Shown: positions 2,779 to 25,965, counted from the stretch's first letter. The stretch: 35,586 bases of DNA from a virus (IMGVR_UViG_3300033066_002009:72961-108546), one strand, 5' to 3'. A program made the numbers and translations. Notes: generated by a model not told the origin, from the letters alone.

Positions 2779-3618
2779 TTAGTATAGTGATGGGGTCGTG
2801 TTTGGGTCTACCAGAATTCCGTACTCTGCCGCACTCCGTGTAATCAGCGAGCACGCCAGTTTCTGGTGAACCATCACTGATTTTAAGGTTGTTGACGAAA
2901 CGGTTTTTACAAACCAGCGCTCATTTTGTCTAAGGTCAACAAGGACATCACCATACTCTAGGTGTGGATAGTCCATGACCGTAAACGCTGTAACCTTCAT
3001 GTCGGATTCACCGTGCCCCGTAACTTGAGTTTGAACGGGTGCAGGCTCTTCACGGCCTCTAATCGAAATTGGCGGCCAGAAACCACCAACAAACGTAGTT
3101 CCAAAACAACTTTCGCAATGTTCCAATGTCCCGTCTTTTGTTGTCGGGTCCCAGCAAACAGGGCAGCGGGTACCCCATCGCATTTTTTTCAGGACAACTA
3201 ATTCAATTCCGTTGAGTACTTTTAGGCCAGTGCCCAGGTCTCGTAGCATTTTCCGCTTAAGGAGGCGGGTGCGCATGTCGAGACCCGGCTCGATCGCGCG
3301 AGCAGGGCTTACCACGACTGCGCTTGAAGGCAGTATTGCGGTTACTCGATAATAAACTTGACGGCTTAACGCGAACAGATTGGTACCTTCTTTTACCGAC
3401 GCCAAGTCTGTCACGGCTGGGCTGTTGAAGTCGTTGTCTAGATAGTTGTAGGCGTTCGTTAAACCGGAAGCTACGGTTTCCCAATCACCGTCAGGGGCTC
3501 CCGCACGTTCCACCGTTACAGTGATGGAGCCGGATTCATCGCTTACGATGTCCCATTGAACAAAAACGGCGTCAGGGTAAAGCGCCGTCGTTCGCGTGAT
3601 TTCTACCGACGTGCTCAT
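2779..3618 (-). CDS. Hypothetical structural protein with a CxxC-x12-CxxC zinc-ribbon (279 aa)
   Basis: Contains RCPVCWDPTTKDGTLEHCESC. Overlaps both neighbours by 4 nt, which fits operon coupling. Confidence 0.6.
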   Translation of the reverse strand: MSTSVEITRTTALYPDAVFVQWDIVSDESGSITVTVERAGAPDGDWETVASGLTNAYNYLDNDFNSPAVTDLASVKEGTNLFALSRQVYYRVTAILPSSAVVVSPARAIEPGLDMRTRLLKRKMLRDLGTGLKVLNGIELVVLKKMRWGTRCPVCWDPTTKDGTLEHCESCFGTTFVGGFWPPISIRGREEPAPVQTQVTGHGESDMKVTAFTVMDYPHLEYGDVLVDLRQNERWFVKTVSSTTLKSVMVHQKLACSLITRSAAEYGILVDPNTTPSLY

Positions 3619-4757
3619 GCGAACGGGTAAGGGCCGTCCATGGCCCCCGACATGTCATTTTCGATGTTCACCGAATCTGTATTTCCGGTGGAATCGAATG
3701 CCCGCCACGCCGACATTGGGGTTTGAGGCCCGGCGCCTAATGGAGGGCTTTTCCGTTGAGACCGTTCTGCGTAAGGGTTTCGAGTTGTCGGACCTGCCCC
3801 GTCGACGATAACGCCTGCACGCCCGAAGCTATCCATTAACGACGCACCGATCTTTTGGCCGTGCGCCTGCATGATCTGGGCGATTTGCGCCTGAGACAGA
3901 CCGGGGAACATGTTTGGATGGACGGCGCCTAGGTTTGGATTGGTGTTGTGTACAGGTCCGCCGTGGATGTTTGAAACGCTTCCAGGCGCCACGGTCTTTC
4001 CGTAAGCTTCTGCGCCGTGAGGATTCATGCGCGGTGCTGGCGAAGGCATCGCCATCCTGCCATTCGGCATACGTCGCGCCATCAATTGCTCAGACATAGC
4101 CTTCCAAGCTTGGTCTTCTGACAAGCCGCTAGCCATGTGGTCAAGCAACGTCATCGGCTTCGCCGACACGGCTCGGAGCATACCTGGCAATGCGTTAATG
4201 CCCGAAACTTTTGCCAGCCCGCCGGTGTTCTGATCAGACTGATTCGCTAGATATTTGTCATCTGCGTTTGCGAGCTGGCTAAACGCGCTAGAGGCTTGGA
4301 TGCCCGGAGGAAGCGTAGAACGCGCACGACTCAGGGCACTGTCAGCTACCGTTGCACTGTGATAGTACGGACTAAGGTGGCTGTCTCCTTTCGACGAAAG
4401 GGAGTCTCTACCGTCTCCGTACATTCCTTGGTTGAAGCCCGCCATTTTTTTTCCGGGCGGCGGCGTTTTCACAGGGCGTGAACAAGCGCCGTAGTGTTTT
4501 GACCTACGACACGTCGTACATAGTTCTTCCGCTAGTTTCCGCGGCTGTGCTACAGCCCCTTGTTGAAGTGAATCGATAGCAGACTCGGTTAACCCCGGTT
4601 TCATAGAGGTTTCCATAGCCTTCGTCGCTTCCGAAGCCGCTCCACCTAGGAGTGGCGACGTCTTTGCTGTTGGGTGTAGACCCCCCAGTGCGACTGACAC
4701 CTTGAAACGGGAGAGGCCCACGATCATGCCCCTCTCGTAAGATTTAACTAGGGTCAT
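3615..4757 (-). CDS. Disordered (G/A/P/M-rich) protein carrying the shared N-terminal motif (380 aa)
   Basis: N-terminus is MTLVKSYERGMIVGLSRFKVSVAL. ATGA overlap with the upstream gene. The rest is low-complexity. Confidence 0.6.
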   Translation of the reverse strand: MTLVKSYERGMIVGLSRFKVSVALGGLHPTAKTSPLLGGAASEATKAMETSMKPGLTESAIDSLQQGAVAQPRKLAEELCTTCRRSKHYGACSRPVKTPPPGKKMAGFNQGMYGDGRDSLSSKGDSHLSPYYHSATVADSALSRARSTLPPGIQASSAFSQLANADDKYLANQSDQNTGGLAKVSGINALPGMLRAVSAKPMTLLDHMASGLSEDQAWKAMSEQLMARRMPNGRMAMPSPAPRMNPHGAEAYGKTVAPGSVSNIHGGPVHNTNPNLGAVHPNMFPGLSQAQIAQIMQAHGQKIGASLMDSFGRAGVIVDGAGPTTRNPYAERSQRKSPPLGAGPQTPMSAWRAFDSTGNTDSVNIENDMSGAMDGPYPFA

Positions 4758-5143
4758 GGAGCCACCGATCCAGGGTTTCCAGTATCCGAGGTTGCAAAGT
4801 TACTATCATTCGCGGTGAACGCTCGGGCAATCGTACTACGTTGCCGTACGCCAGCGTCGGCGGGGTCTCCCCTGACAGCCCCGGCCCCGCCAGTAAATCC
4901 GGCGCCCGCCATGCCTTCCTGTGCTGCCATTTTACCGATTGACGGCAGTTTCATGCTGGCTGACGCGGTGAGCGGATTTTTAGGTATGGCGGCGCCCATA
5001 CCCGACGTAGCCGGGGCTTTAGGCATACTGGCAGGGGGCGGTAGGCCCTGAGTGTTGATTCCGACGCCCTTAAGCGACGGGGCCGCCAGACCAAACTTAC
5101 TTAGGACGTCTACTGCGGCCGCCTCATAGGAGTTCCGCAGCAC
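4754..5143 (-). CDS. G/A-rich small protein with the shared N-terminal motif (129 aa)
   Basis: N-terminus is MLRNSYEAAAVDVLSKFGLAAPSL. Confidence 0.5.
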   Translation of the reverse strand: MLRNSYEAAAVDVLSKFGLAAPSLKGVGINTQGLPPPASMPKAPATSGMGAAIPKNPLTASASMKLPSIGKMAAQEGMAGAGFTGGAGAVRGDPADAGVRQRSTIARAFTANDSNFATSDTGNPGSVAP

Positions 5144-5146
5144 AGC

Positions 5147-5344
5147 TTACTTGCGGAGCTTAGCCGCCAGTGAAGACAGTGAAGACGGGTCTACTGTTGC
5201 GGCCTTCTCAGCGGGGGCGGGCGGCGCGTCAAATAGCCCAAGTTCCGCCGCGGCCTTCTCAACTTCTTCGGCGCTTCCGTAGCCATAGTGCTTGAGAGCC
5301 GCGTTTACACCGCGCTGGTGAGCGATTTCAATCGGAGTTGCCAT
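5147..5344 (-). CDS. Small protein (65 aa) with a diverged copy of the N-terminal motif
   Basis: Carries ...AHQRGVNAALKHYGYGSA. Confidence 0.4.
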   Translation of the reverse strand: MATPIEIAHQRGVNAALKHYGYGSAEEVEKAAAELGLFDAPPAPAEKAATVDPSSLSSLAAKLRK

Positions 5345-5356
5345 TGTCTTACTCTC

Positions 5357-5641
5357 CTATCCAAAGTTCTGTTCACTATAACCGCCAGCCAATCCTGGGG
5401 CTAGATGATCGATGTCTGAAAGATTCCAAAGGTCATCGACAGCGCCCTTGGCCTTTGCTTGAGCGGCCGGGTCTGTCGGGCTCATTGACGGCCTTCCAGC
5501 GTACGGAATCAACGCCGTTCCACTGGAAAGTGTATCACCCGGCGGCTGGACGCCATGGCGGGCACCGAGCACGGCGTCAGCCATTTTATAGCGTACCAGA
5601 GCTGTCATAGCCCCTGTATTATAGGCTTGATTGAGCGTCAT
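5357..5641 (-). CDS. Small protein with the shared N-terminal motif (94 aa)
   Basis: N-terminus is MTLNQAYNTGAMTALVRYKMADAV. ATGA overlap with the upstream gene. Confidence 0.5.
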   Translation of the reverse strand: MTLNQAYNTGAMTALVRYKMADAVLGARHGVQPPGDTLSSGTALIPYAGRPSMSPTDPAAQAKAKGAVDDLWNLSDIDHLAPGLAGGYSEQNFG

Positions 5642-6108
5642 CGATTGAACCTTGCAACGCTACGATATCCGGATCCGAGACTGTTGTACGCCGCTTCCAT
5701 GTTGTTCTGCGTCTTGATCCCGCGTACCAGCTCATCCCATTCTTCCTTGAGAAGGCGGGCAAGCTGGGCATACGCCGCTTGCTTGTCATCAATACCGATT
5801 GGCGCAATGTCTCCATCTTGATACGTCGCTTGGTTCCGGATCTGAAGGAACGTTTCCGACATCATCAAGAATCGACAAGTCCCAAGTAGGAGGACGTACT
5901 TGTTTGGAAACGTGGAGGCTGTAAAGCGCGTCTGAGGCGTAACGGCGTTGAACGCTTCCGCGGCCATCTCTGCCGCGAGGTTTAGCTCGCTGTCGGTGAA
6001 TTGAACGTTCGCCAGGAGGATGTTGTTCTCCGCCTTGTCACGGAGAAACATGCGCACTTGGTCATTGGTAACGACAACTGGAGTCGTTGGAGTGCCGGTG
6101 ACAGGCAT
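5638..6108 (-). CDS. Hypothetical protein (156 aa)
   Basis: ORF in the operon, overlap-coupled to both neighbours. Confidence 0.55.
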   Translation of the reverse strand: MPVTGTPTTPVVVTNDQVRMFLRDKAENNILLANVQFTDSELNLAAEMAAEAFNAVTPQTRFTASTFPNKYVLLLGTCRFLMMSETFLQIRNQATYQDGDIAPIGIDDKQAAYAQLARLLKEEWDELVRGIKTQNNMEAAYNSLGSGYRSVARFNR

Positions 6109-7592
6109 TACTTGGTCTCCTGATTCTGCTGTTCCATAAGTGCCCTGAATTGCTGAATCAGTGATTCCTTGTCAGCACCAAGTTGCGCCAGGTACTCATC
6201 AACTGATTCTCCTGGCTTCTTCCAGCCCCAATTCTCGAGCGTTCCTTTTGGCGGCCGAGTTGCTAGGTATCGTTCAATCTTAACAGACCGCTCGTTTTCC
6301 GGAAGGCTGTCGTGGCTCTTAAAACGGATTCCACGCCCCTCTACCTGCTTGATCTTCTCTTCGTTCCAGTGCGGCTCAAGCATCTGCATTAGCCGCGTTC
6401 CCTTGAGGTCTAGGCCCTCGCCGCCCGCCGATGAAAGTAGTAGCGCCCGTAGCTTGCCCGCGTTGTAGTCCTTTACGAGCTGATCCCGCTCACCGTGCGG
6501 CATCTGACCTGTAAATTCGCCATATGGGATATTTGCTTCCTGTAGTCGCCGCTTGTATGGATTGATTCCGGCGTCTAGGAAGTTCGAATAGATTACGGCC
6601 CGCATGTTCGGGTTGGTTTTGATGCCTTGCTGCAGGTGGTTGAACGCTTCTTGAATTTTCGGCTCCTCGGGTGAGCCTTCAGAAATGTAGGGCCCCGTGG
6701 AGTTCGCGCTTTGACGAGCGCCTGACAAAAATGCGTTCAACTGTTTTGCTTCTCGCTTAGACGGAGGTAGGCCGTGCTTGACCTTGTAAGCGACCCACCA
6801 AGGCGCTTTGTGAAAGAGCGTGTCGTAAACATCGAGCTGCTCCGCTGACATCGGAACTTTAACGTCTTCCCGCTCAACAGTTGGGAAGCCTTCCGTCGAT
6901 CCCGGGTGAAAGTCGACCCACTTGTCGAAGACAGACTTTAGCTCTTTGGTCCGCTTCGGATTGATCTCTGGCCGGACACCCGGGTCCGCGCCAAGCAGGG
7001 ATCCGATAAAGCCAGGGGAGACTGGTTTGTCTACAATGTAGCGGCTGCTAAATACCGCGGGATCTAGGGGTAGTACGTTATCGTGCGCGGCAAGGTCGAC
7101 GAGTGCCGAGATGTCGGAAGGGTGGTTGTAAAACGGTGACGCGGTAAGCAGCAGACGCTTTCCTGCTTGAGATTTTGCCAGCGCCTGAAAGGTGGCCGAC
7201 GACGGATCCCTGGCGCGGTGTGCTTCGTCAACAATCGTAAGAGGCGTCTTGAAGGGCTTACCTTTCATGGCAACATCTTGCATTGAACGTACGTTCAATT
7301 GCTGTCCGCCTCGAATGTGGTTGTCTTGTTCCTTCTTTAGATTGGCCTTGAGAGCCGCTGGAACGATGGCCGTACCTGCCATGCCCAGATCATCCTGGGC
7401 GCCAAGAGCGGTTAGTGTCTTCCCTGATCCTAGTCCGTGGACGACGACCAATCCGGGTTGATCTGGTTGGCGAATACGGTCAGAGACACGAAGCTGGTGA
7501 GGCTTGCGTTCTGTTGTTACGTCGGCAAGCTTGACTAGCCCTAAACGAGATAGGCTAGCCGCGTATCCGTCGTTGTACGAGGCGCGAAGCAT
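6108..7592 (-). CDS. SNF2/DEAH-box superfamily-2 ATPase/helicase with the shared N-terminal motif (494 aa)
   Basis: Walker A GLGSGKT, DEAH box VDEAHR, motif III LLLTASP, and helicase-C motifs SAGGEGLDL and QVEGRGIR. N-terminus is MLRASYNDGYAASLSRLGLVKLAD. Confidence 0.75.
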   Translation of the reverse strand: MLRASYNDGYAASLSRLGLVKLADVTTERKPHQLRVSDRIRQPDQPGLVVVHGLGSGKTLTALGAQDDLGMAGTAIVPAALKANLKKEQDNHIRGGQQLNVRSMQDVAMKGKPFKTPLTIVDEAHRARDPSSATFQALAKSQAGKRLLLTASPFYNHPSDISALVDLAAHDNVLPLDPAVFSSRYIVDKPVSPGFIGSLLGADPGVRPEINPKRTKELKSVFDKWVDFHPGSTEGFPTVEREDVKVPMSAEQLDVYDTLFHKAPWWVAYKVKHGLPPSKREAKQLNAFLSGARQSANSTGPYISEGSPEEPKIQEAFNHLQQGIKTNPNMRAVIYSNFLDAGINPYKRRLQEANIPYGEFTGQMPHGERDQLVKDYNAGKLRALLLSSAGGEGLDLKGTRLMQMLEPHWNEEKIKQVEGRGIRFKSHDSLPENERSVKIERYLATRPPKGTLENWGWKKPGESVDEYLAQLGADKESLIQQFRALMEQQNQETK

Positions 7593-7604
7593 CCCCCGAC
7601 AACA

Positions 7605-8051: not shown

Positions 8052-8058
8052 GTGCTCC

Positions 8059-8340: not shown

Positions 8341-8364
8341 TCCACCGTAATTATAGACTAGCCA

Positions 8365-8685: not shown

Positions 8686-8696
8686 GTTTAGCTCCT

Positions 8697-8725
8697 TTGC
8701 GGCATCTTATCACTTTTCATATTAG
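8697..8725 (+). promoter_or_regulatory. Sigma70-like promoter candidate for the opposite-strand cassette: TTGCGG, 17-nt spacer, TATTAG
   Basis: Read directly: -35-like box at 8697-8702 and -10-like box at 8720-8725. The fit to consensus is imperfect. Confidence 0.3.
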
Positions 8726-9176: not shown

Positions 9177-10097
9177 TTAGACTGGGAAGTCGACGCGCGC
9201 AACTGCCTTGTTGTTACCGAACCCGATACCGTTCACGGAGTAACCGTGGAACTCGATGATATCGGCTTCCTGCTTAATGAACAGCGTGGCGTCCTGGAGA
9301 AGGAAGAAGACGCCAAGGTAGTTCTGCGGCGCGAAGAGATAGGCCGAGCGACGGGTGTCGTCGTTAACGATCTCTTCCTTAATCGTGGTGATGACCGGGA
9401 TGCCCCATAGCTTCTCTTCCGCCTCGATACCTAGATCGTAGTGGCGAGAAGCGACGTCGTTACCGACGCTGGTAGCGGCCAGGTCAAGGGCCTCGTAATA
9501 GAGCCCCTTAGACATTAGGAGCTTGCCGATCGGCTGGCGGCGGCTGACCATACCCTGGAAGGCCGTCTTGAAGGCGCTCGAGGAGAAGGCGCCAGCGGCC
9601 TGCACCTGTGTCGGGAACAGCGCCAGGATGTCGTTCACGGTGTCCGTGAACTTCTGGTCTTCCTGGTCTGCCATGTCCTTTACCGAGTTGTCCGAGAGGA
9701 TCTTCCTGATGTCGTTCTGGTACGTCATCAGCTCGAACTTCGACTTAGTAAAGCGCTGCGACTCCACCTTGCCGAAAAATACGGCGAAGCGTCCACCCTT
9801 GAACCAGGTGCGCTGTCCCGTGCCGTGGAAAGGCACGAACGTGGCAAGGGAGTCAGGCTCCTTCTCCACAATGCGCTTCGGCTGGTCCGTGTTCTCATCA
9901 CGATCGATCTCGTCGTCCGCCAACATCACGGGCTCGATAATCTCTCGCGCGAAGGACTCCTGGCGCATCTTCTGACGGATGAACGCCGTTCCTTCTGCCT
10001 CCGCTTCCTTCGTCCGCCCCTCATCCAACTTGCGGACAAAGTTGGAGTTAATGAACTGGGCGGACACCTGCTGCGTCTGGGTCCTGTAGTTCGCCAT
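9177..10097 (-). CDS. Major capsid protein candidate (306 aa)
   Basis: The call rests on position and size, not on a recognised fold motif. The gene follows the scaffold-like and protease-like genes, has an SD (GGGAGA), and is followed by the strongest terminator in the window. Confidence 0.5.
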   Translation of the reverse strand: MANYRTQTQQVSAQFINSNFVRKLDEGRTKEAEAEGTAFIRQKMRQESFAREIIEPVMLADDEIDRDENTDQPKRIVEKEPDSLATFVPFHGTGQRTWFKGGRFAVFFGKVESQRFTKSKFELMTYQNDIRKILSDNSVKDMADQEDQKFTDTVNDILALFPTQVQAAGAFSSSAFKTAFQGMVSRRQPIGKLLMSKGLYYEALDLAATSVGNDVASRHYDLGIEAEEKLWGIPVITTIKEEIVNDDTRRSAYLFAPQNYLGVFFLLQDATLFIKQEADIIEFHGYSVNGIGFGNNKAVARVDFPV

Positions 10098-10666: not shown

Positions 10667-11023
10667 TCACGAAACGATCCAATTGACGAATCGGTCTTCT
10701 GCCGCATCTGCGGCTTCTTTTACGGTTGAGGGCGCCGAGGAATCATTCCTCTGGGACGGCCCACCAAGAGCAGGTACTTCACCTGCGGTCTTCTCTACAG
10801 TCTGACGCAGAAGCTCAAGGACGTCCTTGTCGCTTGTCGCCAATTTTTGACGGAGGGTGTCTGGCAGTTCTTCTCCAGTTGCCGCCGCATACTTGTCAGA
10901 CAGCTCGGTAATCTGAGCATTCCGCGCATCTCGAAGAGCCGTCTTTTCACGGTTCTCGATTTCGTCCACATATGCGGCAGTCTTTTCAAGCACTTCCGCT
11001 ACGTGTATTAATAGTTGATTCAT
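10667..11023 (-). CDS. Acidic coiled-coil protein (118 aa)
   Basis: Helical, E/K-rich ORF. Confidence 0.5.
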   Translation of the reverse strand: MNQLLIHVAEVLEKTAAYVDEIENREKTALRDARNAQITELSDKYAAATGEELPDTLRQKLATSDKDVLELLRQTVEKTAGEVPALGGPSQRNDSSAPSTVKEAADAAEDRFVNWIVS

Positions 11024-11165
11024 CGCCCGACTCCCAACTTCCGGCGCAGGATTTCTAGGCCGCTAGCCGCCTCAACGATTTGTGCACACTTTACACGCTT
11101 CGTTTCAGCTTGGTGTTCGGCTTCTCGTCGAACCTCTGTGGCAAGCTTTCTAAGAGACTCGCCGG

Positions 11166-11393
11166 TCATCGCGATGCCTTTAGGTAGTCGTTCAAATCTG
11201 CGTAAGACACTCGAGACTCAACAGACGATAGCTCGGCCGCAAGCTTAAACAACAGCTCACCAATTTCGCCTTGCGGATGGGTCGACGCGGTCTTTACAAT
11301 GGCGCGTTCCGCCGAACGACGATTATCTGCCGCTGTCACGGTTGCAATAGCATCATCAGCCAGTTGACTGAGTGACCGTGCGTTACGTGCCAT
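11166..11393 (-). CDS. Small hypothetical protein (75 aa)
   Basis: ORF in the operon. Confidence 0.4.
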   Translation of the reverse strand: MARNARSLSQLADDAIATVTAADNRRSAERAIVKTASTHPQGEIGELLFKLAAELSSVESRVSYADLNDYLKASR

Positions 11394-11776
11394 TATAGGC
11401 CTCCACCGCCGGGAAGGATCCCATAGGACTGAAGGGCCGGAACCATTTGACGGCCAATTGCAGGCAGAGCAACACCAGCACCCATGCCAGCGCCAAACGC
11501 GCGATTACGGGTCTTGAGACGCTCTTCCTCGTCCTTCTTAGCCTGGAGGTGCTGGCCGATTAGACCGCCACCGCCAAGACCAAGAGCCAACGGCGCGGCC
11601 ATCAACCCCGTTGTAAATGCCGGATTCCGCCCCAGCAACCCCGGCAAAGTCTTCAATCCTCGCCCCATCCCCGCAAGAGTTCCAGACAGGCTCGCGATCT
11701 TTCCGTTGGAAAGAACGTCCGCATGTGCGGCCTTGAAGAGCTGCCCATATCGGGCAATGTTGGTGGCCGAGTACAT
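11393..11776 (-). CDS. Gly-rich small protein (127 aa)
   Basis: G-rich segments that look like membrane/GxxxG packing. Confidence 0.5.
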   Translation of the reverse strand: MYSATNIARYGQLFKAAHADVLSNGKIASLSGTLAGMGRGLKTLPGLLGRNPAFTTGLMAAPLALGLGGGGLIGQHLQAKKDEEERLKTRNRAFGAGMGAGVALPAIGRQMVPALQSYGILPGGGGL

Positions 11777-11778
11777 GG

Positions 11779-14804: not shown

Positions 14805-14807
14805 GGG

Positions 14808-17408: not shown

Positions 17409-17420
17409 CTTGTCAGTCTC

Positions 17421-18110
17421 CTAGCTGAGGTACTGCGCCTTTTCTTTCGCCGGAACTTGGTCAGTGCCGTCCTTGTGGAGCAATCGGATAAGAAGGCCGT
17501 GTACACCTTCTTTACTCTTCCCGGTGCTCAAAGCCCGCGCCGCGTCCAACGCAGTTTTGAAATACTTGTGGGTTTCCTTGGCTTCTGCAGCAGTTACGCC
17601 ATAGAACTTATTTGACTTACCGCGGTAGAACGCTTCAGCAGCGATGTACCGCTGAATATCAGACGGGTCAACGTCTCCATAGTCGCCAAAGTAAAACCAC
17701 ATCAGCCATGTAATGCCGTGCATGAAAGCCTGTTTCATACCCATGGCTCCGACTGCCCGGCTTTCGTAGCTTGAAATCCATTCCATCAATTGAAGCCGAT
17801 TCTTAAACACCCCTTCGTCAAAAAAAAGCCGCCGATACGCGTCGACGAATTCAGGACTCACTCCTAGGTATTTATGAATCTGTTCGTCGGTAGTGCGGGA
17901 CAAAAGCCACATGTACATCGTGTCTCGACTGAAATCGCTATTGAAGCTTTCCCACGCGTCTTGGAGCGTCTCGTCAGCGGCAACAGCGCGGCCCGCAAGC
18001 AGGCGGTGGAGAGCAACTTCTAGCTCTCCCGACCAATCCGGCAGTGGTTCATTTCGCTTGTAGGCATTGATAACTGCGTGAGCCCGCCAAGCAGGGTCAC
18101 GACCGCGCAT
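17421..18110 (-). CDS. Hypothetical protein (229 aa)
   Basis: ORF in the operon, W/Y/F-rich. Confidence 0.55.
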   Translation of the reverse strand: MRGRDPAWRAHAVINAYKRNEPLPDWSGELEVALHRLLAGRAVAADETLQDAWESFNSDFSRDTMYMWLLSRTTDEQIHKYLGVSPEFVDAYRRLFFDEGVFKNRLQLMEWISSYESRAVGAMGMKQAFMHGITWLMWFYFGDYGDVDPSDIQRYIAAEAFYRGKSNKFYGVTAAEAKETHKYFKTALDAARALSTGKSKEGVHGLLIRLLHKDGTDQVPAKEKAQYLS

Positions 18111-21024
18111 TGCCGCTCATACCCTTGAGGACGTTAGCGTTCTGGCTCAGACGGAGAACCAGATCACCCATGTCTCGGTGAGTTGTCAGAAGCTTGTCTT
18201 CAAGCTCTGAATAGCCCTCTTCACCAATTTCAGTCTTAAGGGCACTCTCCTGCATCCACATTGTGAGAATAATTCTCGCGAGGTTGTCTAGGGCCTTTTC
18301 AAGGTTCGGAACGTACTGACTGACGAGTTCCTTGACCATAGGAGACTGCGCCAAAGCGGAGACCGCAGCTGCGTCGAATACGTCTCCGTTTGCCAGCTGT
18401 GCAGCTTGTCCCAAGAATTGCGGATTAATCTGCTGCTCGAGCATGTGGTTGTTAAATCCATCCTCCGACATCATGGCCTGCGGCGGCCCGCCCATCATCG
18501 ATGGATCCTGGCCCATTCCAGACATTCCGCCGCCCATGCCCATCGAAGGATCGGCACCCATCGGGCCAATCGGACTCTGGGACATATTTGGGTCCATCAT
18601 GCTGCCCATCTGAGGCATCTGCATGCCAGGAGCACCCCCCATCATCGAAGGGTCCATGCTTCCCTGCGGGGGCATTCCACCCATCGTCGACGGGTCCATA
18701 CCGCCCATTTGCGGAGAAGGACCTGGGTACATCGGCTGACCCATGCCCGATGGTTGCTGCGGCTGTCCCATAGGGGCGCCAGTCGCCATGTTAACCGACG
18801 GAGGCGGGGCACCCATGGCTTGGGTTTGAACGGACGGCATAGGCGCCGCACCACCCGCAATTTCCTGAGATCTGGCAGCGATCTGCTGCACAAGCATCAT
18901 CTTCTCAGTGAGCTTTTGGATTTCCTGCTCAATCTGCTGAGACGCTTCCATAGCTGCTAGGTCAGTGGGAGAGGGTGGCGGAGGCGCCATTGGAGCACCG
19001 CCCATCATTGATGGATCACCGCCCATTGACGGGTCCATGGAAGGGTCTCCTCCCATGGAAGGATCATCACCGCCCGCCATAGGGTCACCGCCGCCGCTAC
19101 CAGGAGGTCCATCCTTCTTCGGAGGAGCCTTCTTCTTGTCCCCCCCACTATCCTTCTTCTTCGAAGAATCCTCGTCCCCCGCTCGTTTTTCGAGCTTGGT
19201 CCGCGCCATCCGGATTTGATATGGCGCAGCGACGATAAACTGCGCGATGCCGTCAGAGGCTGCCTTTTCGAGGATGGCTTCTGATTCTTCAACCGTCAAA
19301 TTGAGGCCGCCTGCTAGGTAGCGAAGGGCCGAAATCTTATCGACAGCCTGAGTTCCATTGACAGAGAACTGTCCGTGGCCGGCATTCTTTACTGCGGACT
19401 TCTGTGCACCAACAGACAGCAAAGACGAGACTGTCGCGTGTGTTAGATCCATCGCAGAAGTGAACAGGTCACGGGCGTAGACCCGGTCTTTTAGTGGCAC
19501 CCACGCGAAATCGGCGGGTACGTAAGTGATGTTAGAGAACTGCGGCATCCAGATAGAGCCGAACGCGTTCGCAGGATCGGTTACCAGGGTCTTCTCTTCT
19601 CCCCAGCCTTCTGCGCTCGTGGCCAAGATGCGGCGTACGCCGTCTGAGCCTGTCGTAACTGATTTGATGTTGAGAGGGCAAGTGGCCTGAAATGACGTGC
19701 CCTTTGCGCGAACAAAGAAGCCAAGTCCCGTCTTTGGTGCCGCTCCGTCCGTCACACCGAACAGTGAAGAGTAGAGCTTTCCGCCGGAAAGATCATCTGC
19801 AATTGATGCGCGGCCAACAAGGCGGTCGACCATTGAATAATCGCCGTTGCCGAAAACCGCCATGTAACGCGGAGTATCGTGGGGGGTAAGCTCGTCTGCG
19901 AGATTCGGGCGGCCCTCCGGATATACGCGAGTGTTGACACGGCCATGAACCTCGTGATCGTGATGGTCAACACCTCCCGGGGTTGGATCTGTATAGGAAT
20001 TGTCAACCATCGGATTGCGCGCCGGAACGACCGGCTTTCGGCCGTAGCGGGTCGCATGGCCAAACAGGTTCACCGGGTTCGGCATTACAAATGCCGTAGC
20101 CTCGCTCATGTCTGTTTTGTAGAGGTTGTACACACCGGGCGTGGTGGGTTCTACGTATTGCTCGTACGGCTGCACCTTCATAGCCACATTGTGAAACGCC
20201 CGCTCGTCTTTCGCCGCGTACCCCTTCAGCTTCACACCAGAGTACGCCTCGCCGGAACGTTCTCCGAAGATGCGCTTAAACTCGGAAGGCTTTGTGTCCT
20301 TGTCCGCAATCCAAAGAGCGCCGCCATAATTCTGCTTTGCGGCAACCTTCTCTTGTCGAAGAACTACAGCATCTCGAAGTGCTGAAATACCGTAGATCGC
20401 AACAGCGGTCTTCAGAAGGTCTGGGTTCCGCTCGAGAGTATTCACGAACGCTTGCTTAACGCGATTCGGGGCGCGGTCAAGAAACCCTAGAAGCATTGGA
20501 CGGTACTCTTGCGCCGTTTTTTCAATGCCGCCGATGTATGCCGCGTAGGAGAACCTTCCAGTGACGGGAGGCACTACGACGTTTCGAATGTCTACATCGG
20601 AGTAAAGGGTTTCGGGAGTCTTTACGCCCTTGCCCAATTCTCCCATAGACATCTTATCAATCTCGTCCAGCCACCCCTTTGTAAGGGGCAAAAAGACGTT
20701 TAGCGACTTGTGGTAGACAATCTCTAGGGGCTTGGTGTTGTTGTCCGCCATCACGACGGGGATGTACAGTGTCTGGCCCTGGCGCTGGATAATAAACGCA
20801 CCTACGCCACTGCCTTCATCGATGTCAGTGTTGATCACCCTGAACGTGACCACGTTTTCGACAAGGTCCGGCAGCTTAGAAAGAAGAAGGTTGTAGGCGG
20901 CCTGTGAAAACCCCTGCTCAAACAGGGCGGTTACCTGGTCGGGGCCCGCGTCCTGTTGCATCTGCATCTGCTGGGTCTTCGGCGACATCGCCATGGGCCC
21001 CATCTGCGGCATCGGCATCGTCAA
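18097..21024 (-). CDS. Large virion protein with a ~290-aa M/G/P/Q-rich low-complexity domain (975 aa). It could be a portal or an internal-core protein.
   Basis: The N-terminal ~620 aa look globular. MGGDPSM-type repeats follow, then a helical C-terminal tail. It sits just downstream of an intrinsic terminator and has a GAGG SD. Confidence 0.65.
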   Translation of the reverse strand: MTMPMPQMGPMAMSPKTQQMQMQQDAGPDQVTALFEQGFSQAAYNLLLSKLPDLVENVVTFRVINTDIDEGSGVGAFIIQRQGQTLYIPVVMADNNTKPLEIVYHKSLNVFLPLTKGWLDEIDKMSMGELGKGVKTPETLYSDVDIRNVVVPPVTGRFSYAAYIGGIEKTAQEYRPMLLGFLDRAPNRVKQAFVNTLERNPDLLKTAVAIYGISALRDAVVLRQEKVAAKQNYGGALWIADKDTKPSEFKRIFGERSGEAYSGVKLKGYAAKDERAFHNVAMKVQPYEQYVEPTTPGVYNLYKTDMSEATAFVMPNPVNLFGHATRYGRKPVVPARNPMVDNSYTDPTPGGVDHHDHEVHGRVNTRVYPEGRPNLADELTPHDTPRYMAVFGNGDYSMVDRLVGRASIADDLSGGKLYSSLFGVTDGAAPKTGLGFFVRAKGTSFQATCPLNIKSVTTGSDGVRRILATSAEGWGEEKTLVTDPANAFGSIWMPQFSNITYVPADFAWVPLKDRVYARDLFTSAMDLTHATVSSLLSVGAQKSAVKNAGHGQFSVNGTQAVDKISALRYLAGGLNLTVEESEAILEKAASDGIAQFIVAAPYQIRMARTKLEKRAGDEDSSKKKDSGGDKKKAPPKKDGPPGSGGGDPMAGGDDPSMGGDPSMDPSMGGDPSMMGGAPMAPPPPSPTDLAAMEASQQIEQEIQKLTEKMMLVQQIAARSQEIAGGAAPMPSVQTQAMGAPPPSVNMATGAPMGQPQQPSGMGQPMYPGPSPQMGGMDPSTMGGMPPQGSMDPSMMGGAPGMQMPQMGSMMDPNMSQSPIGPMGADPSMGMGGGMSGMGQDPSMMGGPPQAMMSEDGFNNHMLEQQINPQFLGQAAQLANGDVFDAAAVSALAQSPMVKELVSQYVPNLEKALDNLARIILTMWMQESALKTEIGEEGYSELEDKLLTTHRDMGDLVLRLSQNANVLKGMSGNARS
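18440..19200. repeat. Imperfect short tandem repeats that encode the M/G/P/S/Q low-complexity tract
   Basis: Repeated ccgcccat/ccatcgatgg-like units. This also explains the long His/Arg-rich antisense ORFs in the track. Confidence 0.5.
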
Positions 21025-21037
21025 TCCTCGTATCGTT

Positions 21038-21092
21038 CAAAAAACTAAAACGCCTCCGGCGCGTGGCCACCGGCCCTCGCGAACGGAGGCGT
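21038..21092 (-). terminator. Rho-independent terminator on the minus strand
   Basis: ACGCCTCCG and CGGAGGCGT form a 9-bp stem around a GC-rich loop, followed by TTTTAGTTTTTT. Only 13 nt separate it from the next start codon, so readthrough is likely. Confidence 0.55.
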
Positions 21093-21115
21093 CATTCAAC
21101 CTCTTGAGCCGTTGT

Positions 21116-22411
21116 TTAGGCGCGAGAGGCTGCAGCGTTTACGATTGCCCTAAGCCGGAGGCCTAGGTCACTCGCCTCCTTCTTGTCATCGTCCTTCTTG
21201 CACTCACAAGGCGACTTACCACACTTCTCGCACTTGTCGTCCTTCTTCTCGGAGTCCTTCTTCTCAGGCTCCTTCTCACTCATGTTGGCCATGAAGGCCG
21301 GGAGTCCGCCGTCCTCCGCCTTCTTCTGATTGGCCTTGGCGCCATCATAGCCCGAGTATCCACTGGTGTACTTCGGGGAGCCTGGAACGAACTCCGGATT
21401 TGCGTTAGCAGCGGTCTTCGACGCGATCTTCTGGTGGAGCCCGTGGATGTAGTGGGCCTTCTCAGCAACGTCTAGATCCATCATCGCCTGAATGTGACCG
21501 ATCTTCTCGTCTTCACCTAGACCATTGGGAAGATACGGCACGATTTCCCGGGCAGCCTTGCGGAACACTTCAACATATCCCGCGGCCTTGGCCGAATGCT
21601 GTGTCAACGAGTTGCTGCCGTCGACGGAGCGGCTGGGCCCGTTGGGCATCGCCATTTCCTTGCCCACGATGGCAGGGCCGGTGACGAGGCCCGGAATTGC
21701 GCCGGGTGCACCCTGATGCGGCAGAACCGCGTAACCAGCTGGGCGGGCAGCCAGGTCCATCTTGCCTTCGGCAGTGGTGGGCTCCTTGTTGCCCTTGTCG
21801 CCCCCTTCAATGTTCGAGCCCATTGCAATCTTGCGCAGGGCCTCAGCAAGTGAAGAGGTCTTGGACGCGTCAATCACCGTGTTATCGCCAGACGGCGAAT
21901 TAGCGGGTGCCGCAGGATGGGGCTCTTCCTTGCCGACGGCGCCAGGGCGCGTGTCGACCTCAGTCTTGCCCGCACCGCCAGCTCCGTTCTCGCCCTGTGC
22001 GGCGTAGCCGTCCGGACGTGCCTTCTCGTCCATCTTGCCTTCCGCGGTAGTGCGCTCGGTGTTGCCCTTGTCGCCGCCTTCATAGTTCGAGCCCTCAGCG
22101 AGCTTCATCAAGTGGAGCGCATGAACCTGCGCAACCTTTGACAGATCCTGCTGAGACGCAACCTTAGCGGTCGGGCCCGGCCGGTAGCCCTGCTGGGCCA
22201 GTTCCGCCGAAGCGTCGATAAGGTGCTCGGCGATCTTGGCCGTCACTTCACGTGACACACTGGCCGCCTGGAAGCCGTTCATTACATCAAAATCGACGTT
22301 GTCGGCGATGTAATCCGCGATCTTCGCGGCTGAATCTTCGTCGGGGTATGCAGCGTGCCCGGCCTGTACCAGCGCACCCTGAATTCCGCGAACGTATGCC
22401 TTCTTGAACAT
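21116..22411 (-). CDS. N-motif protein with a ~91-aa internal tandem duplication and a Lys/Cys-rich tail (about 431 aa from MFKKAY)
   Basis: The repeat units are GSNYEGGDKGNTERTTAEGKMD... and GSNIEGGDKGNKEPTTAEGKMD.... The C-terminus carries CEKCGKSPCECK. SD GGGAGA precedes the ATG at 22411. Confidence 0.6.
   Translation of the reverse strand: MFKKAYVRGIQGALVQAGHAAYPDEDSAAKIADYIADNVDFDVMNGFQAASVSREVTAKIAEHLIDASAELAQQGYRPGPTAKVASQQDLSKVAQVHALHLMKLAEGSNYEGGDKGNTERTTAEGKMDEKARPDGYAAQGENGAGGAGKTEVDTRPGAVGKEEPHPAAPANSPSGDNTVIDASKTSSLAEALRKIAMGSNIEGGDKGNKEPTTAEGKMDLAARPAGYAVLPHQGAPGAIPGLVTGPAIVGKEMAMPNGPSRSVDGSNSLTQHSAKAAGYVEVFRKAAREIVPYLPNGLGEDEKIGHIQAMMDLDVAEKAHYIHGLHQKIASKTAANANPEFVPGSPKYTSGYSGYDGAKANQKKAEDGGLPAFMANMSEKEPEKKDSEKKDDKCEKCGKSPCECKKDDDKKEASDLGLRLRAIVNAAASRA
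21646..22111. repeat. Intragenic tandem duplication of about 275 bp, two copies
   Basis: The DNA copies cccttgtcgcccccttcaatgttcgagcc (~21781) and cccttgtcgccgccttcatagttcgagcc (~22061) lie ~280 bp apart. Confidence 0.5.
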
Positions 22412-22492
22412 GTCGTATCTCCCGTTCAACCGCGGTTATGGTCGGTCAACGCGTTGCTGGAAATAATAGTCCAGTATCACGCGATGCACAAA

Positions 22493-22699
22493 TTATAGAA
22501 TAGGCTTCGCATTTGGGGCGATCGGAGCGCTCATAGCATGCACAGGATTCCCTGACGATCCTGCTGCGGCTCCTGGTGCCGGTGTCGGCCCCGCATTGAT
22601 GGATTTCATTGGAAATTGCCCTACGCCAATAGCAGCGCTTCCTAGTTTAAATCGAGCAATCTTGGCGTTCCAGCCGGTGATATACGCGTCTTGAATCAT
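22493..22699 (-). CDS. Small protein with the shared N-terminal motif (68 aa)
   Basis: N-terminus is MIQDAYITGWNAKIARFKLGSAA. TGATG overlap with the upstream gene. Confidence 0.45.
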   Translation of the reverse strand: MIQDAYITGWNAKIARFKLGSAAIGVGQFPMKSINAGPTPAPGAAAGSSGNPVHAMSAPIAPNAKPIL

Positions 22700-23346
22700 C
22701 AGTAAGAACTCACTTGGCCGTAGGGTTGATAAGGAATTTCTTCCTGGAGCGGCGCTTGCTGCGCCGCGAATTGTTCTTGAGCCAGTTGGGGCCGGGGCTT
22801 ACTGCCCAGGAGATGGCCAACACCGCGACCAAGGCGCTCTCCGGCTCCACCGCCAAAATGTGCTCCTACCATGCCCCCCATGCCGAACCCGACGAGGTTT
22901 CCGGCCTCCCGGCCTGCCGTGCTAAGAACATTCGTCATGGTGCCCTCGTTAGGGTCCCCTTGTCCGAGCGCCGCGCCACCAATTGCCATCGCAGGCAGCC
23001 CTACGCCTAGTCCCCGCCATAGCCATTTCCCTGCGCGTTGGTGGAGCTTGTCGGGTGGCATAAGTGACCCGTTAAGCATGTGCGGGGCGTTGTGGATCGT
23101 CGGCCATAGCGCTTCCCGTACAGCACCGCCGCGCCGGAATGCGTCGCCAGACACTAAATGAGAGATGCCTTCGGCCGGATTTCTCATGCGGCCGACCGCC
23201 ATGTTTATCCCGCCGTCCAAAAGCCCTTTCCCCCATCCCATAGCTTTTTGGCCAAGGGATGCCGCTGCCGCAGAGGGAGCGGCTGTCTTTACGCCATAGC
23301 GCGAAAGACTGCGGTTAAAAGAGGCGTTGTAAACGGTTTGTAGCAT
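22699..23346 (-). CDS. G/A-rich protein with the shared N-terminal motif (215 aa)
   Basis: N-terminus is MLQTVYNASFNRSLSRYGVKTAA. TAATG overlap with the beta'-C gene. Confidence 0.55.
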   Translation of the reverse strand: MLQTVYNASFNRSLSRYGVKTAAPSAAAASLGQKAMGWGKGLLDGGINMAVGRMRNPAEGISHLVSGDAFRRGGAVREALWPTIHNAPHMLNGSLMPPDKLHQRAGKWLWRGLGVGLPAMAIGGAALGQGDPNEGTMTNVLSTAGREAGNLVGFGMGGMVGAHFGGGAGERLGRGVGHLLGSKPRPQLAQEQFAAQQAPLQEEIPYQPYGQVSSY

Positions 23347-25151
23347 TAGTACGTTCCGGTAGGCCCTTCACCGAATTCTCCGCCAAACGCATATGCGGGA
23401 ACAGGGTTAGTTCCGTGAACCTTACTTGAATCAGAACGGTGAGCGCCCGCAAGAAGGCCCTCTCCGAGGAACCGGTGTGCGAGCCGCGCCATCCAGTCCG
23501 GATTTAGTAGCGGAGTGCGTTCAGCAGGGCGCATGAAGGGCTCTACAAGTGGCGCTTTGTGGGCAATGTGAACGCGCGTCACGTGATTCCGTTTTAAGTC
23601 GTCCTCAACGCTCTTAGTGATTCGGGTGCCCGCTGTGAAGTGGAGCACGTCATCCGCTAGGGTTTCCCCGAGAGCGTCCTCAAGTGGCAACTCTTTTCGC
23701 GAGCCGGCCAAGAACGTTTTATATTTATTGTAGTCGATGATGTCACCGCGCGTGAGCCCATTATCCTCGTCATCCCCTGTATCTACTACACGGACGTGGT
23801 TCAGAATCGATTTAGCCATTGTTTCAAAGTGGCGCTTGTCGATCTCAATTCCCTGGCTTTTGTAGATGTTGAACATTGCATCGGTGAGGTACTTGCGGCC
23901 CGCACCAAGGCCTTTGTATTGAACTACTTCATTTGGGCGAGGGATTCCATCGGAAAGGGCGTCACCGGACTCTACTTTCTGCCCCATTGATACAACGACA
24001 TCTAGGCTTGGCTCGATATAGTGTCTCTCACTGTCAACCCAAACGTAGTGTCCGCCTTGCGGTGCGGTTTCAATCTTCGTTACGGTTCCGTCGTGGAAGG
24101 CCAAGGCCGCCGCATGAAGAAATGACTTCGGAATCTGAAGCATCTGCTCCACACCCTTAACGCCTTCAACGGTCTTTTCTTTTTTAAGCTTGGCAAGATC
24201 CTTCGCGTGCTTGGCGCCTAGTGCGAACTGCGTCAAGGGTTCCGCCATGGACTGCGCGGCTCGGACACCAATATTGGTACCAATCGCGTGCAGGCGACCA
24301 TACGGATCTAGCCCTTCGCACTTCTGACAAAGGCCGTCATTCATCTCACATGTCATTGGCGAGCGAACGATCACGTCACCGCCAAGTGCTTTCAATTCAG
24401 AGGCAATATGTGGAGTAACCATGGTGCCCGCTTTGACGGTTCCCTTGTCATGTGCGGTGTACCGGTCGATGATGTGCGGGTCGTCCGTGTGCATCGCAAG
24501 GCCGTTGCGTGTCCCGCAATCGTTTTGGACGATCAACTTGTCAGCCATGTTGTTGACCAGGATCTTTCCGAGGTCTCCCGGTTCCGAGACGGCTGTTCGC
24601 GTCTTAATTTCGTTTACTCGAGCCTCTGTCATGGCGGCCCACGCCTCTGAAGGGCGAAGACCCTCCGCATAGCTTCGAATAATCGGCCACGGAATAACTT
24701 GGTCTTTGTCGCCAGACGCGAGTACGGGAGCAGCAACACTTCGCATCAACTGCGGAAAATTTCCTCGGCCGCCGGATCGGGCCATCTCACCCATCGAGCC
24801 TGGATGGCGCTTTGTCAACTCAATCATCGGGGCGAGGCCTTTGATCAAAGCCTGTTGCTTGTCGACTACAGACTTTGCCTTATGAAAATCCGCTAGAATT
24901 GGCTTCATAATGGCGTCACGCTGCTCATACATTGGCGTGATGTCATCGATACCCACAGAGATCCCCTCCAACGTGGAGATTTCGTCGCCTAGGCGCTTGA
25001 GGGAAGAGACGATCCCTGGGTACTCATCAGGCTTGGTTCGGGCCAAGTCGACAAGGATGTCCCGCATGCGGCCCTTCGTCAGGGGGCCCTTCCCGTCATA
25101 TTCTTTTGGGAGAACGTCGTAGACAAGGCGCTCCCCGAGAGAAGTCGCCAT
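23346..25151 (-). CDS. RNA polymerase beta' subunit, C-terminal half (rpoC2/A''-like split subunit, 601 aa)
   Basis: The segment RSPMTCEMNDGLCQKCEG...HAIGTNIGVRAAQSMAEPLTQFALGAKH matches the bacterial beta' region around the trigger loop (VRSxxTCE..GxCxKCYG..GxxxGxIAAQSIGEPGTQ). Confidence 0.85.
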   Translation of the reverse strand: MATSLGERLVYDVLPKEYDGKGPLTKGRMRDILVDLARTKPDEYPGIVSSLKRLGDEISTLEGISVGIDDITPMYEQRDAIMKPILADFHKAKSVVDKQQALIKGLAPMIELTKRHPGSMGEMARSGGRGNFPQLMRSVAAPVLASGDKDQVIPWPIIRSYAEGLRPSEAWAAMTEARVNEIKTRTAVSEPGDLGKILVNNMADKLIVQNDCGTRNGLAMHTDDPHIIDRYTAHDKGTVKAGTMVTPHIASELKALGGDVIVRSPMTCEMNDGLCQKCEGLDPYGRLHAIGTNIGVRAAQSMAEPLTQFALGAKHAKDLAKLKKEKTVEGVKGVEQMLQIPKSFLHAAALAFHDGTVTKIETAPQGGHYVWVDSERHYIEPSLDVVVSMGQKVESGDALSDGIPRPNEVVQYKGLGAGRKYLTDAMFNIYKSQGIEIDKRHFETMAKSILNHVRVVDTGDDEDNGLTRGDIIDYNKYKTFLAGSRKELPLEDALGETLADDVLHFTAGTRITKSVEDDLKRNHVTRVHIAHKAPLVEPFMRPAERTPLLNPDWMARLAHRFLGEGLLAGAHRSDSSKVHGTNPVPAYAFGGEFGEGPTGTY

Positions 25152-25153
25152 GG

Positions 25154-25540
25154 TTAACCGAACATCCCCCCGAGGTCATGCTTCATGCGCGCTGTGTTGA
25201 TGTAGGGCATGTCGTTTTGGTCCGGGGCGGTGGCGCGGCCAAGCATGCCCGCGCCAAGAAGGGCGCCACCGCCTAGGGCCATGCTGGGCAATAGACCTTT
25301 TGCGGCCCCCATCGCCTGGCTACGGCCAAGCGCTCTCACGCCTTCTTGAACACCTGGGACTCCCGACGAGTGCATCATCCCGTTGATTCCGGTGCCAAGA
25401 TCGCGCATGTGGCTGCCTTGACCCCCTAGGAAACGACCAACAGCGCTGCCCATGTTTCCGAGGGAAAACGCTTCCTTCTTGATGCCGTAGCGGTGTAGCG
25501 CCGCGGTCATACCAACTTCGTAGGCTTGCTTGATGGTCAT
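25154..25540 (-). CDS. Small protein with the shared N-terminal motif (about 128 aa from MTIKQAYEV)
   Basis: N-terminus is MTIKQAYEVGMTAALHRYGIKKEAF. TAATG overlap with the upstream ORF. The longer track ORF (from 25630) would overlap its neighbour by 90 nt. Confidence 0.5.
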   Translation of the reverse strand: MTIKQAYEVGMTAALHRYGIKKEAFSLGNMGSAVGRFLGGQGSHMRDLGTGINGMMHSSGVPGVQEGVRALGRSQAMGAAKGLLPSMALGGGALLGAGMLGRATAPDQNDMPYINTARMKHDLGGMFG

Positions 25541-25965
25541 TAGAACACAGCTCCATTGGATGCGCCGCCTGCCGGATTTCCTAGGACGTCTCCAGAGTTT
25601 CCGGCGGCAGGGTGGGTAGCAGGGCCCCATGACGTTGAGCGGTCAAGGGGATCTTTCTTCGCGCTTGGGTCGATAGTTCCTGGCGGCTGGGGCAGCGACT
25701 GAAGAAACGCGGCCAACGCTTCCGCTGGAAGGTGATCGTCTGCCTGTGGCTCTAACGGAGCGAGCCCATGTTCCGCGCTCTTTCCGGCACCTTTTTCAGA
25801 GACGTTCCGTAGGGTTCCGTCCATCCCATGGAATCCGCGAAATGGCCGAATCTTCAGACGGACTTCGTCTGACGCCGCAGTCTTTACCCCAAAACGGGAA
25901 AGAGCAGCCCACGCCGCAACCTTGTAGATGTGGGTGATGGAGCAATTATTTGGCATGTACGGCAC
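25540..25965 (-). CDS. Small protein with the shared N-terminal motif (141 aa)
   Basis: Carries ...ITHIYKVAAWAALSRFGVKTAA. It lies 8 nt downstream of the RNAP fusion gene. Confidence 0.5.
   Translation of the reverse strand: MPYMPNNCSITHIYKVAAWAALSRFGVKTAASDEVRLKIRPFRGFHGMDGTLRNVSEKGAGKSAEHGLAPLEPQADDHLPAEALAAFLQSLPQPPGTIDPSAKKDPLDRSTSWGPATHPAAGNSGDVLGNPAGGASNGAVF

Follow-up and report, generated by a model that had tools for sequence, protein, structure and literature searches.

A stretch of viral DNA of 35,586 nucleotides (IMGVR_UViG_3300033066_002009:72961-108546, hereafter the window) was analysed, and a short peptide motif of about 20 residues, x3-4-[AS]-[YH]-x2-G-x3-A-L-x-[RK]-[FY]-[GK]-Φ-K, was found to open ten of its open reading frames (ORFs), all on the minus strand, where all credible genes of the window lie. 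This motif, here called the tag, is a protein-level motif kept across a large clade of uncultured phages that are distantly related to Salmonella phage Arash. Its bodies are unrelated, it was gained and lost among orthologues, it stands at variable positions and its flavour changes genome-wide, which together argue that the tag is a modular docking peptide. By analogy with known phages, this peptide may well act as a capsid-targeting sequence for cargo that is loaded into the prohead.

The motif had been noticed on nine ORFs in a reading of the sequence alone (the sequence-only reading), and all nine were present on the minus strand and opened with it. Leave-one-out hidden Markov models (HMMs) were run on the complete set of 1064 six-frame segments from the window. 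Seven of the nine withheld members took the top rank among non-seed segments, with E-values from 1e-5 to 0.08. The ORF 22493-22699 was borderline (E 0.44), and 21116-22411 was not recovered (E 72); the latter was recovered with an enlarged model at 30.7 bits, and its orthologues keep the variant MFKxAYVRGxQxALVxxG clade-wide. Of the three weaker copies proposed in the same reading, only 5147-5344 held up (19.4 bits, independent E-value 1e-3), being the top non-seed segment in five of the nine runs. The other two, 15277-16497 and 16485-17408, gave no motif match in the HMM search of the window (E > 50).

The motif was also sought in related metagenomic phages, as the sequence-only reading had proposed. 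In 96 related loci, an iterated HMM matched the gene strand at 103 sites and reversed-sequence decoys at none. The search of N-termini only gave 138 matches against 0 decoys, and the motif started within residue 8 in 113 distinct ORFs. The tag persisted down to about 40% identity of the RNA polymerase (RNAP), and a small-residue face (G9 and A13) was conserved within it. Where two tags had the same residue, the same codon was used in only 30% of cases, which indicates that conservation acts on the protein and that no common element of DNA or RNA underlies the tag. No Rfam family matched anywhere in the window. The motif is short and rich in the common residues A, L and G, which could favour an origin by chance, by recent paralogy or from a shared nucleotide element. 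The probability of such an origin is practically nil, given the absence of decoy matches, the conserved position at the start codon, the unrelated bodies, the differing codon use and the conservation at low RNAP identity. Chance, paralogy and a DNA-level element were effectively refuted by the decoys, the bodies and the codons.

Searches of much larger collections led back to the same clade. When 5.8 billion proteins were searched through a word index with the tag profile, only 139 candidates and 5 matches were returned, all from this clade, and the weaker copy 5147-5344 was recovered among them as P0244. An exhaustive HMM search of 1.84 billion representative proteins with a 26-position profile gave five matches at E <= 1e-3, two of them genuine and from the same clade and three of them repeat proteins. 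No tag was detected outside the clade among these 1.84 billion representatives, the sensitivity being limited by the shortness of the motif. Furthermore, neither the tag nor the tagged small proteins had a family match in Pfam or PHROG, and neither this clade nor this tag was found described in a literature search.

In the order of the coordinates, the first tag (4692-4757, MTLVKSYERGMIVGLSRFKV; leave-one-out E 0.0065, 21.3 bits) forms the N-terminus of a 380-residue low-complexity protein (3615-4757). The second (5078-5143, VLRNSYEAAAVDVLSKFGLA; leave-one-out E 0.082, first among non-seeds) opens a 129-residue G/A/P-rich protein with a GTG start (4754-5143), and the weaker tag (5270-5344, PIEIAHQRGVNAALKHYGYG) occupies residues 4-23 of the 65-residue protein 5147-5344. 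The tag at 5576-5641 (MTLNQAYNTGAMTALVRYKM, leave-one-out E 1.7e-5) opens a 94-residue protein (5357-5641), and that at 7527-7592 (MLRASYNDGYAASLSRLGLV) opens an ATPase of the SNF2 family (6108-7592). The body of this ATPase (6108-7526), a putative cargo enzyme, is the orthologue of Arash gp217. The variant tag at 22346-22411 (MFKKAYVRGIQGALVQAGHA) belongs to a 431-residue protein (21116-22411) of family D3, which is present throughout the clade and conserved in more than 40 loci. This protein has two copies of a repeat of about 35 residues, GSN[YI]EGGDKGN.E.TTAEGKMD..ARP.GYA, and its C-terminus is highly charged and Cys-rich (CEKCGKSPCEC) and might bind metal.

The remaining four tags lie close to the gene of the C-terminal β′ subunit of the RNAP. 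The tag at 22634-22699 opens a 68-residue protein (22493-22699, family D2), and that at 23281-23346 (E 8e-5), which ends in GVKTAA, opens a 215-residue Gly-rich protein (22699-23346, family D1). The tag at 25475-25540 (E 1.3e-5) is the N-terminus of a 128-residue Gly/Met-rich protein (25154-25540, family U2). The last one (25873-25938) covers residues 7-28 of the protein 25540-25956 of family U1; the true start of this ORF, 25540-25965, is probably the ATG at 25956, with the tag at residues 7-25. In 22699-23346, 25154-25540 and their orthologues, conserved terminal hydrophobic stretches of Gly-zipper-like character were observed, e.g., ALGALGGLAGSMYG..LGAPILG. Such ends on the tagged proteins that flank β′ suggest membrane insertion or channel formation after ejection.

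After removal of the tags, pairwise comparison of the bodies gave nothing significant; the best E-values, 0.008-0.018, came from short low-complexity stretches. The tagged proteins are therefore not paralogues, and the check for similarity over full proteins found none once the tags were removed. This was in agreement with the earlier observation that what follows the motif differs completely from protein to protein. The bodies comprised an SNF2 ATPase, small hydrophobic Gly-rich proteins and low-complexity proteins. The ATPase had been named as such in the sequence-only reading, and both Pfam lobes were found in 6108-7592 above their gathering scores (PF00176 SNF2-rel_dom, E 2.3e-8; PF00271 Helicase_C, E 9e-15). 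An AlphaFold2 model of this helicase, built with 30 orthologues, had an overall predicted local distance difference test (pLDDT) score of 89.6. Residues 2-16 of its tag were modelled as a helix at pLDDT 46-60, a disordered linker came next, and the helicase core began at about residue 24 with pLDDT >90.

The idea that the tag is transferable was borne out by its gain and loss among orthologues, by its N-terminal, internal, C-terminal and duplicated positions, by the linker that sets it apart from the helicase core and by the unrelated bodies. It stands at the start of ORFs, as the sequence-only reading had it, but it is not strictly N-terminal, since internal and C-terminal cases occur in relatives. 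The helicase orthologue gp217 of Arash starts right at the helicase core and has no tag, and in tblastn the alignment between the window helicase and gp217 starts only at residue 30. No tag was seen on the inspected locus proteins of Vibrio phage D69. In another helicase orthologue (P0123), about 85 extra residues stand between the tag and the core. In most relatives, the tag of family U1 comes after an N-terminal domain of about 45 residues, PFKSEAQRRKFYAMANRGEIS...TPKGKKLPE, which is missing from the window ORF 25540-25965 and had no match in Pfam or PHROG. In locus L004 (9064-9267) this domain is a separate 67-residue protein with the tag at its C-terminus. The domain, written as MPFKSEAQRRKFYAMANRGEIS..EWE..TPKGKKLPE, was also observed in L003 (9189-9330) and L168 (1359-1480). 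In addition, the database protein P0246 has two tags.

Other bodies were found in relatives. A 491-residue protein (L103 7252-8727) with LigD 3'-phosphoesterase and ATP-dependent DNA ligase domains has a tag-like start, MDASAFKIGGRLAALADLGLLK, and its gene sits in the RNAP operon just upstream of the gene for the C-terminal part of β′; the LigD-like homologue in L125 has no tag. Locus L168 has the tag on otherwise unannotated proteins of 434 and 488 residues. No C-terminal motif was shared among the tagged proteins, and the candidate that was found was specific to family U1. Moreover, homologues of the window genes 5638-6108 and 2779-3618 are adjacent in D69 (L165 36763-38184), while four tagged ORFs (3615-5641) separate these genes in the window. 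Accordingly, 3615-5641 looks like a clade-specific island of tagged accessory (cargo) genes, as the gene order suggests.

Across the clade, the tag occurs in three flavours, AYxxGxxxALxRFG, FxDELxKIA and GYxxALxxLGLEK, which, read by eye, appear alignable as D-x-L-x-[KR]-Φ-[GA]-Φ. Among helicase orthologues whose cores are 55-70% identical, the closest relatives of the window carry AYxxGxxAALxRxGVK and most others carry FxDELEKIAxIKT. The FxDELEKIA flavour was also present on one to three neighbouring proteins in loci L006, L007 and L009, and the genome sampled by L013 and L120 has the shorter GYxxALxxLGLEK on at least three proteins. In qualitative terms, the flavour appears to be a property of the genome and not of the protein family. 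Such genome-wide switches, as qualitative evidence, point to co-evolution with one shared partner; a flavour specific to the genome is what co-evolution predicts and hence supports docking to one shared receptor. Within the subclade of the window, the tags mainly track their protein families. Concerted evolution of the tags within this subclade was considered and rejected, the effect being only marginal (p = 0.02).

Genome-wide change of flavour would also be predicted if the tags bound each other. In that case, G-x-x-x-A helix bundles would build an inner-core or ejection complex and no separate receptor would be needed. The conserved face of small residues, G9 and A13, is typical of tight helix-helix packing, and the natural two-tag protein P0246 would fit such bundling as well. 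However, nothing points to self-association of the helix, the confidence of AlphaFold2 in the tag was low, and the tag on a soluble ATPase and on a ligase-like enzyme would be left unexplained, and for these reasons mutual binding of the tags is considered unlikely. An amphipathic membrane anchor, which the sequence-only reading had offered as an alternative and which would send the proteins to the host inner membrane, is highly improbable. The net charge of 0 to +3 in the window tags and of +4 in the clade consensus would suit such a helix, and so would the Gly-zipper-like hydrophobic segments in several bodies. Yet the helical hydrophobic moments (0.03-0.35) did not exceed those of shuffled tags, conservation falls on small residues (G and A) and not on bulky hydrophobic ones, and the tag is carried by a soluble SNF2 ATPase.

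A second short motif, K-[TVI]-A, was strongly enriched in proteins of the head module. It occurred 39 times in the window proteins, about four times the 10.1 expected when each protein was shuffled (z = 9), and EK[TVIS]A occurred 12 times against 0.8. The tripeptide KTA was the second most over-represented one of the head-module proteins (15 against 1.07). The fuller form of the motif is L-E-K-[TVI]-A-[AS], and the excess was limited to proteins of the head module whose genes lie between those of the RNAP and the capsid (10667-22411). Seven sites were found in the 215 residues of 11779-12426 (0.6 expected), seven in 21116-22411 and three in 10667-11023; further concentrations were found in 14808-15266, 15277-16497, 16485-17408 and the N-terminal part of a 975-residue protein. 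No enrichment was found in the RNAP, the helicase core, the capsid protein or the portal-like protein. In Arash, 17 occurrences of the pattern [LIVMFGT][EDTQSKN]K.A[AGS] were counted where 2.7 were expected, and most of them lie in gp220, gp222 (the protease), gp223 and gp225. In D69 (L165 29749-33456), 18 occurrences stood against 2.4 expected, and ten K.A[AS] sites fall within the 269 residues of the protein that comes after the protease. Among the tags, 40 of the 84 unique sequences carry K-x-A at positions 16-25, against 9.9 expected, and the FxDELEKIA flavour includes the motif within itself.

The maturation proteases of known phages recognise L/I-x-E in T4 and S/A/G-x-E in phiKZ and SPN3US (PMC5694885), and K-x-A is distributed like these cleavage motifs, which makes it a candidate protease site. 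L-E-K-[TVI]-A-[AS] could be the site of a maturation protease or, equally, a short docking motif. No conserved x-x-E of the T4 or phiKZ type was found after the tag in any orthologue alignment. A candidate processing enzyme or hub is the 594-residue protein encoded at 12423-14207 on the minus strand, which has a prohead-protease-like N-terminal domain. The PHROG family phrog_18299, annotated as head maturation protease, matched 14 of 14 orthologues of this protein (E 3e-14 to 6e-15), and H116/H117 and S168-M-G were invariant or nearly so among them. In an hhalign comparison, S168 stood opposite the catalytic Ser114 of HK97 gp4, with an E-value of 0.35 that is not significant. No match was found in Pfam, including the gp21-like model, or in the PDB, and the single-sequence AlphaFold2 model of the protease domain was unusable (pLDDT 31). 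In two orthologues (L089 20953-21777 and L102 20616-21809), the sequence diverges right after S-M-G-C and continues as CFLAGAKVTMADG... or CVCADTYIHTPAG...; in both, this resembles the beginning of an intein inserted at the putative active site. The next gene downstream of the protease encodes a 215-residue protein (11779-12426, minus strand) with seven K-[TVI]-A sites, which is likely the scaffold, as judged from the gene order.

The presence of a prohead-protease homologue in the module and the enrichment of K-x-A in head proteins and at the tag ends would also fit a simpler role, in which the tag is only a recognition or propeptide element of the prohead protease, serves processing or activation and does no targeting. 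This is very unlikely. Half of the tags lack K-x-A, and the conserved Y..G...AL upstream of it is absent from the other motif-rich head proteins. In addition, a prohead protease normally works inside the prohead, so its substrates would need targeting anyway (PMC5694885).

The genes around the tags identify the window as part of a head module. All ten tagged genes lie in the interval from the portal-like gene to just past the capsid gene, among RNAP, protease and scaffold-like genes. The gene order equals that of Arash gp204-gp226 and of D69, with protein identities of 25-39%. On the minus strand, the portal-like protein (31885-33684) is a homologue of Arash gp204, annotated as portal, and had no independent family match. 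The untagged fusion subunit of RNAP β and the N-terminal part of β′ (25973-30445) had PHROG RNAP matches and 35% identity to Arash gp206. The untagged C-terminal subunit of β′ (23346-25151) matched Pfam RNA_pol_Rpb1_5 and is the orthologue of Arash gp216. The homologue of the major capsid protein (9177-10097) is 39% identical to Arash gp226, which is annotated as such. Searches of the PDB by sequence and profile gave no match for the protease, the 975-residue protein, the portal-like protein or the capsid protein. In Arash virions, the RNAP protein gp206 had 3516 spectra, the most of any protein, gp216 had 1210 and the helicase gp217 had 1148, with 38 unique peptides; gp218 and gp220-226 were detected as well (PMC10585845). 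Taken with the synteny, this abundance of RNAP and helicase in the virions indicates that the window is a head module with a virion RNA polymerase.

The level of Arash gp217 (L001 31112-32530) in the virion was about equal to that of RNAP β′ by spectra (1148 and 1210), which suggests a packaged pair of RNAP and helicase, reminiscent of the poxvirus RNAP with NPH-I. This similar level is one of several points that would fit a tag acting as a docking helix that tethers accessory factors, namely the SNF2 ATPase and the small proteins of the RNAP operon, to the virion RNAP. Five tagged genes (U1, U2, D1, D2 and D3) flank the β′ gene in every relative examined, and the Arash helicase gene directly follows the β′ gene. 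Moreover, SNF2 ATPases that bind RNAP are known: RapA binds the bacterial RNAP, and NPH-I associates with the virion RNAP of poxviruses. However, ten or more proteins per genome would compete for a single site, and half of the tagged genes (3615-7592) are far from the RNAP genes and beside capsid-proximal ones. Most bodies are rich in Gly, Ala and Pro or hydrophobic, unlike transcription factors, and this RNAP is shared by Arash and D69, and the helicase by Arash, neither phage having any tag. Docking to the RNAP is therefore judged to be quite unlikely.

Some further observations were made on the locus. More than 500 metagenomic homologues of β′ were found, many on contigs of 150-200 kb. When GTDB genomes were scanned for clues to the host, the matches were mainly rpoC genes of bacteria, together with two mis-binned phage contigs, and no host was assigned. 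The window lies on a contig of 108.5 kb, and attempts to extend this contig gave only short ones. In the window, the RNAP gene and the small gene 31440-31865 are separated by a gap of about 1 kb (30446-31439) with raised GC content (~0.60), where relatives have only about 50 nucleotides. Gene calls on a near-identical contig put two of the ORFs in this gap on the opposite strand; the gap had no match in Rfam or Pfam, and its ORFs had no family match.

With these alternatives weighed, the preferred reading, about as likely as not, is that of a capsid-targeting docking peptide. In its favour are the position of the tagged genes in a head and virion-RNAP module with a prohead-protease homologue, the virion-borne RNAP and helicase of Arash and the precedents in T4 and P1. 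The tag, in which a short helix bearing the conserved Y..G...AL face leads into [RK]-[FY]-G-Φ-K-x-A, would bring variable and mutually unrelated proteins to a single partner within the prohead as it assembles. Candidates for this partner are the scaffold or core, the protease-scaffold protein and the inner surface of the capsid. The tagged proteins would be packaged beside the virion RNA polymerase and would leave the capsid with the DNA into the host. The cargo would consist of the SNF2 ATPase, small hydrophobic Gly-rich proteins and low-complexity proteins and, in a relative, a LigD-like enzyme. The K-x-A-[AS] that ends about half of the tags may be a prohead-protease site that frees the cargo.

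Several results weigh against this reading. The closest cultured relatives, Arash and D69, have no tag, and since the Arash helicase is in virions untagged, packaging in Arash does not depend on the tag. The RNAP subunits themselves carry no tag, and the internal and C-terminal positions are unlike the capsid-targeting sequence (CTS) of T4. K-x-A is missing from roughly half of the tags, and what follows them contains no site common to all. Gly-zipper-like hydrophobic stretches in several tagged proteins would also suit membrane proteins with a role in the infected cell. In the subclade of the window, tags of the same genome were 36.7% identical compared with 34.9% between genomes (permutation p = 0.02). 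Finally, Arash gp220-gp225 have many K-x-A and yet were detected in virions at 80-100% coverage, which makes complete degradation and expulsion of the K-x-A proteins unlikely.

A more elaborate form of the capsid-targeting reading is possible but rather doubtful. It supposes a two-part sorting code, in which a genome-specific docking helix and the K-[TVI]-A protease motif would together define a changeable capsid cargo for co-injection. It is likewise a tentative proposal that this cargo would be enzymes and membrane-active proteins travelling beside the virion RNAP, including the SNF2 ATPase and, in relatives, the LigD-like ligase. Since the helix tolerates N-terminal, internal and C-terminal positions and would co-evolve with its receptor, such a code would amount to a naturally programmable protein-delivery system, unlike the T4 CTS in sequence, protease type and architecture.

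Capsid-targeting signals have been studied in a few phages, and the characterised ones found in the literature were only those of T4, P1 and the phiKZ group, none of them established as a sequence family that spans hundreds of genomes. The CTS of T4 is a short peptide on diverse internal head proteins (IPI-III, Alt and gp24), which guides these proteins to the scaffolding core, comes with a site for the prohead protease and can be transferred to foreign proteins (PMC3012670, PMC5694885). The tag resembles it as a short peptide common to unrelated proteins encoded with head genes, and the pairing of a targeting sequence with a cleavage site may have its parallel in the tag with K-x-A (PMC5694885). 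However, the T4 CTS has 10-20 residues, is strictly N-terminal and ends in L/I-x-E, which gp21 cuts, whereas the tag, at about 20 residues, also occurs in internal or C-terminal positions, and no x-x-E comes after it. By its PHROG annotation, the protease of the window also resembles the HK97 type and not gp21. The tag was therefore not placed in the T4 CTS family, as it is not strictly N-terminal and has no x-x-E site. By eye, and with no alignment made, no sequence resemblance between the tag and the T4 CTS was seen.

In phage P1, the large enzyme DarB is directed into the capsid by fewer than 30 N-terminal residues, which suffice for a reporter as well (PMC9024508). That signal belongs to one protein, whereas the tag is common to ten, and the two have no known sequence relation. 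For phiKZ, 201phi2-1 and SPN3US, N-terminal regions have been proposed to target the prohead, a protease motif recurs on many head proteins, and the paralogues gp53 and gp54 share an identical 15-residue N-terminus (PMC5694885). The phiKZ group is similar to the phages studied here in its multisubunit virion RNAP and its many ejection proteins. Its propeptides, however, are mostly longer than 100 residues, are cut at S/A/G-x-E by a gp21-like protease and are shared by paralogues, whereas the tag is on unrelated proteins, without conserved x-x-E and without a gp21-like Pfam match for the protease of the window. The phages studied here also belong to a different lineage and are smaller, the Arash genome having 180.8 kb and the related contigs up to about 200 kb.

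Similar short signals exist outside the phages. The cargo-loading peptide of encapsulins is short, conserved and modular, can be terminal and binds the interior of a shell with the HK97 fold. However, the encapsulin is a cellular compartment without portal, tail, DNA or protease, and its GSL-type motif is unrelated to the tag, whereas the tag locus is a tailed-phage head module with portal-like, protease, capsid and RNAP genes, syntenic with the myovirus Arash. In the poxvirus virion, the packaged multisubunit RNAP travels with the SNF2-family ATPase NPH-I, and Arash virions contain both the RNAP and the orthologous helicase in abundance. The poxviruses differ in their eukaryotic hosts, in a homology only at the superfamily level and in having no shared tag system.

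If the tag is an encapsidation signal, a receptor that co-varies with the tag flavour would be predicted. The K-x-A motif may expose the specificity of an uncharacterised prohead protease, and foreign proteins could be loaded into capsids by means of this short peptide, which tolerates different positions. For the phages themselves, the tag would provide a route by which an SNF2 ATPase enters the host alongside the virion RNA polymerase, and the repertoire of ejected proteins of a whole uncultured clade would become readable from sequence.

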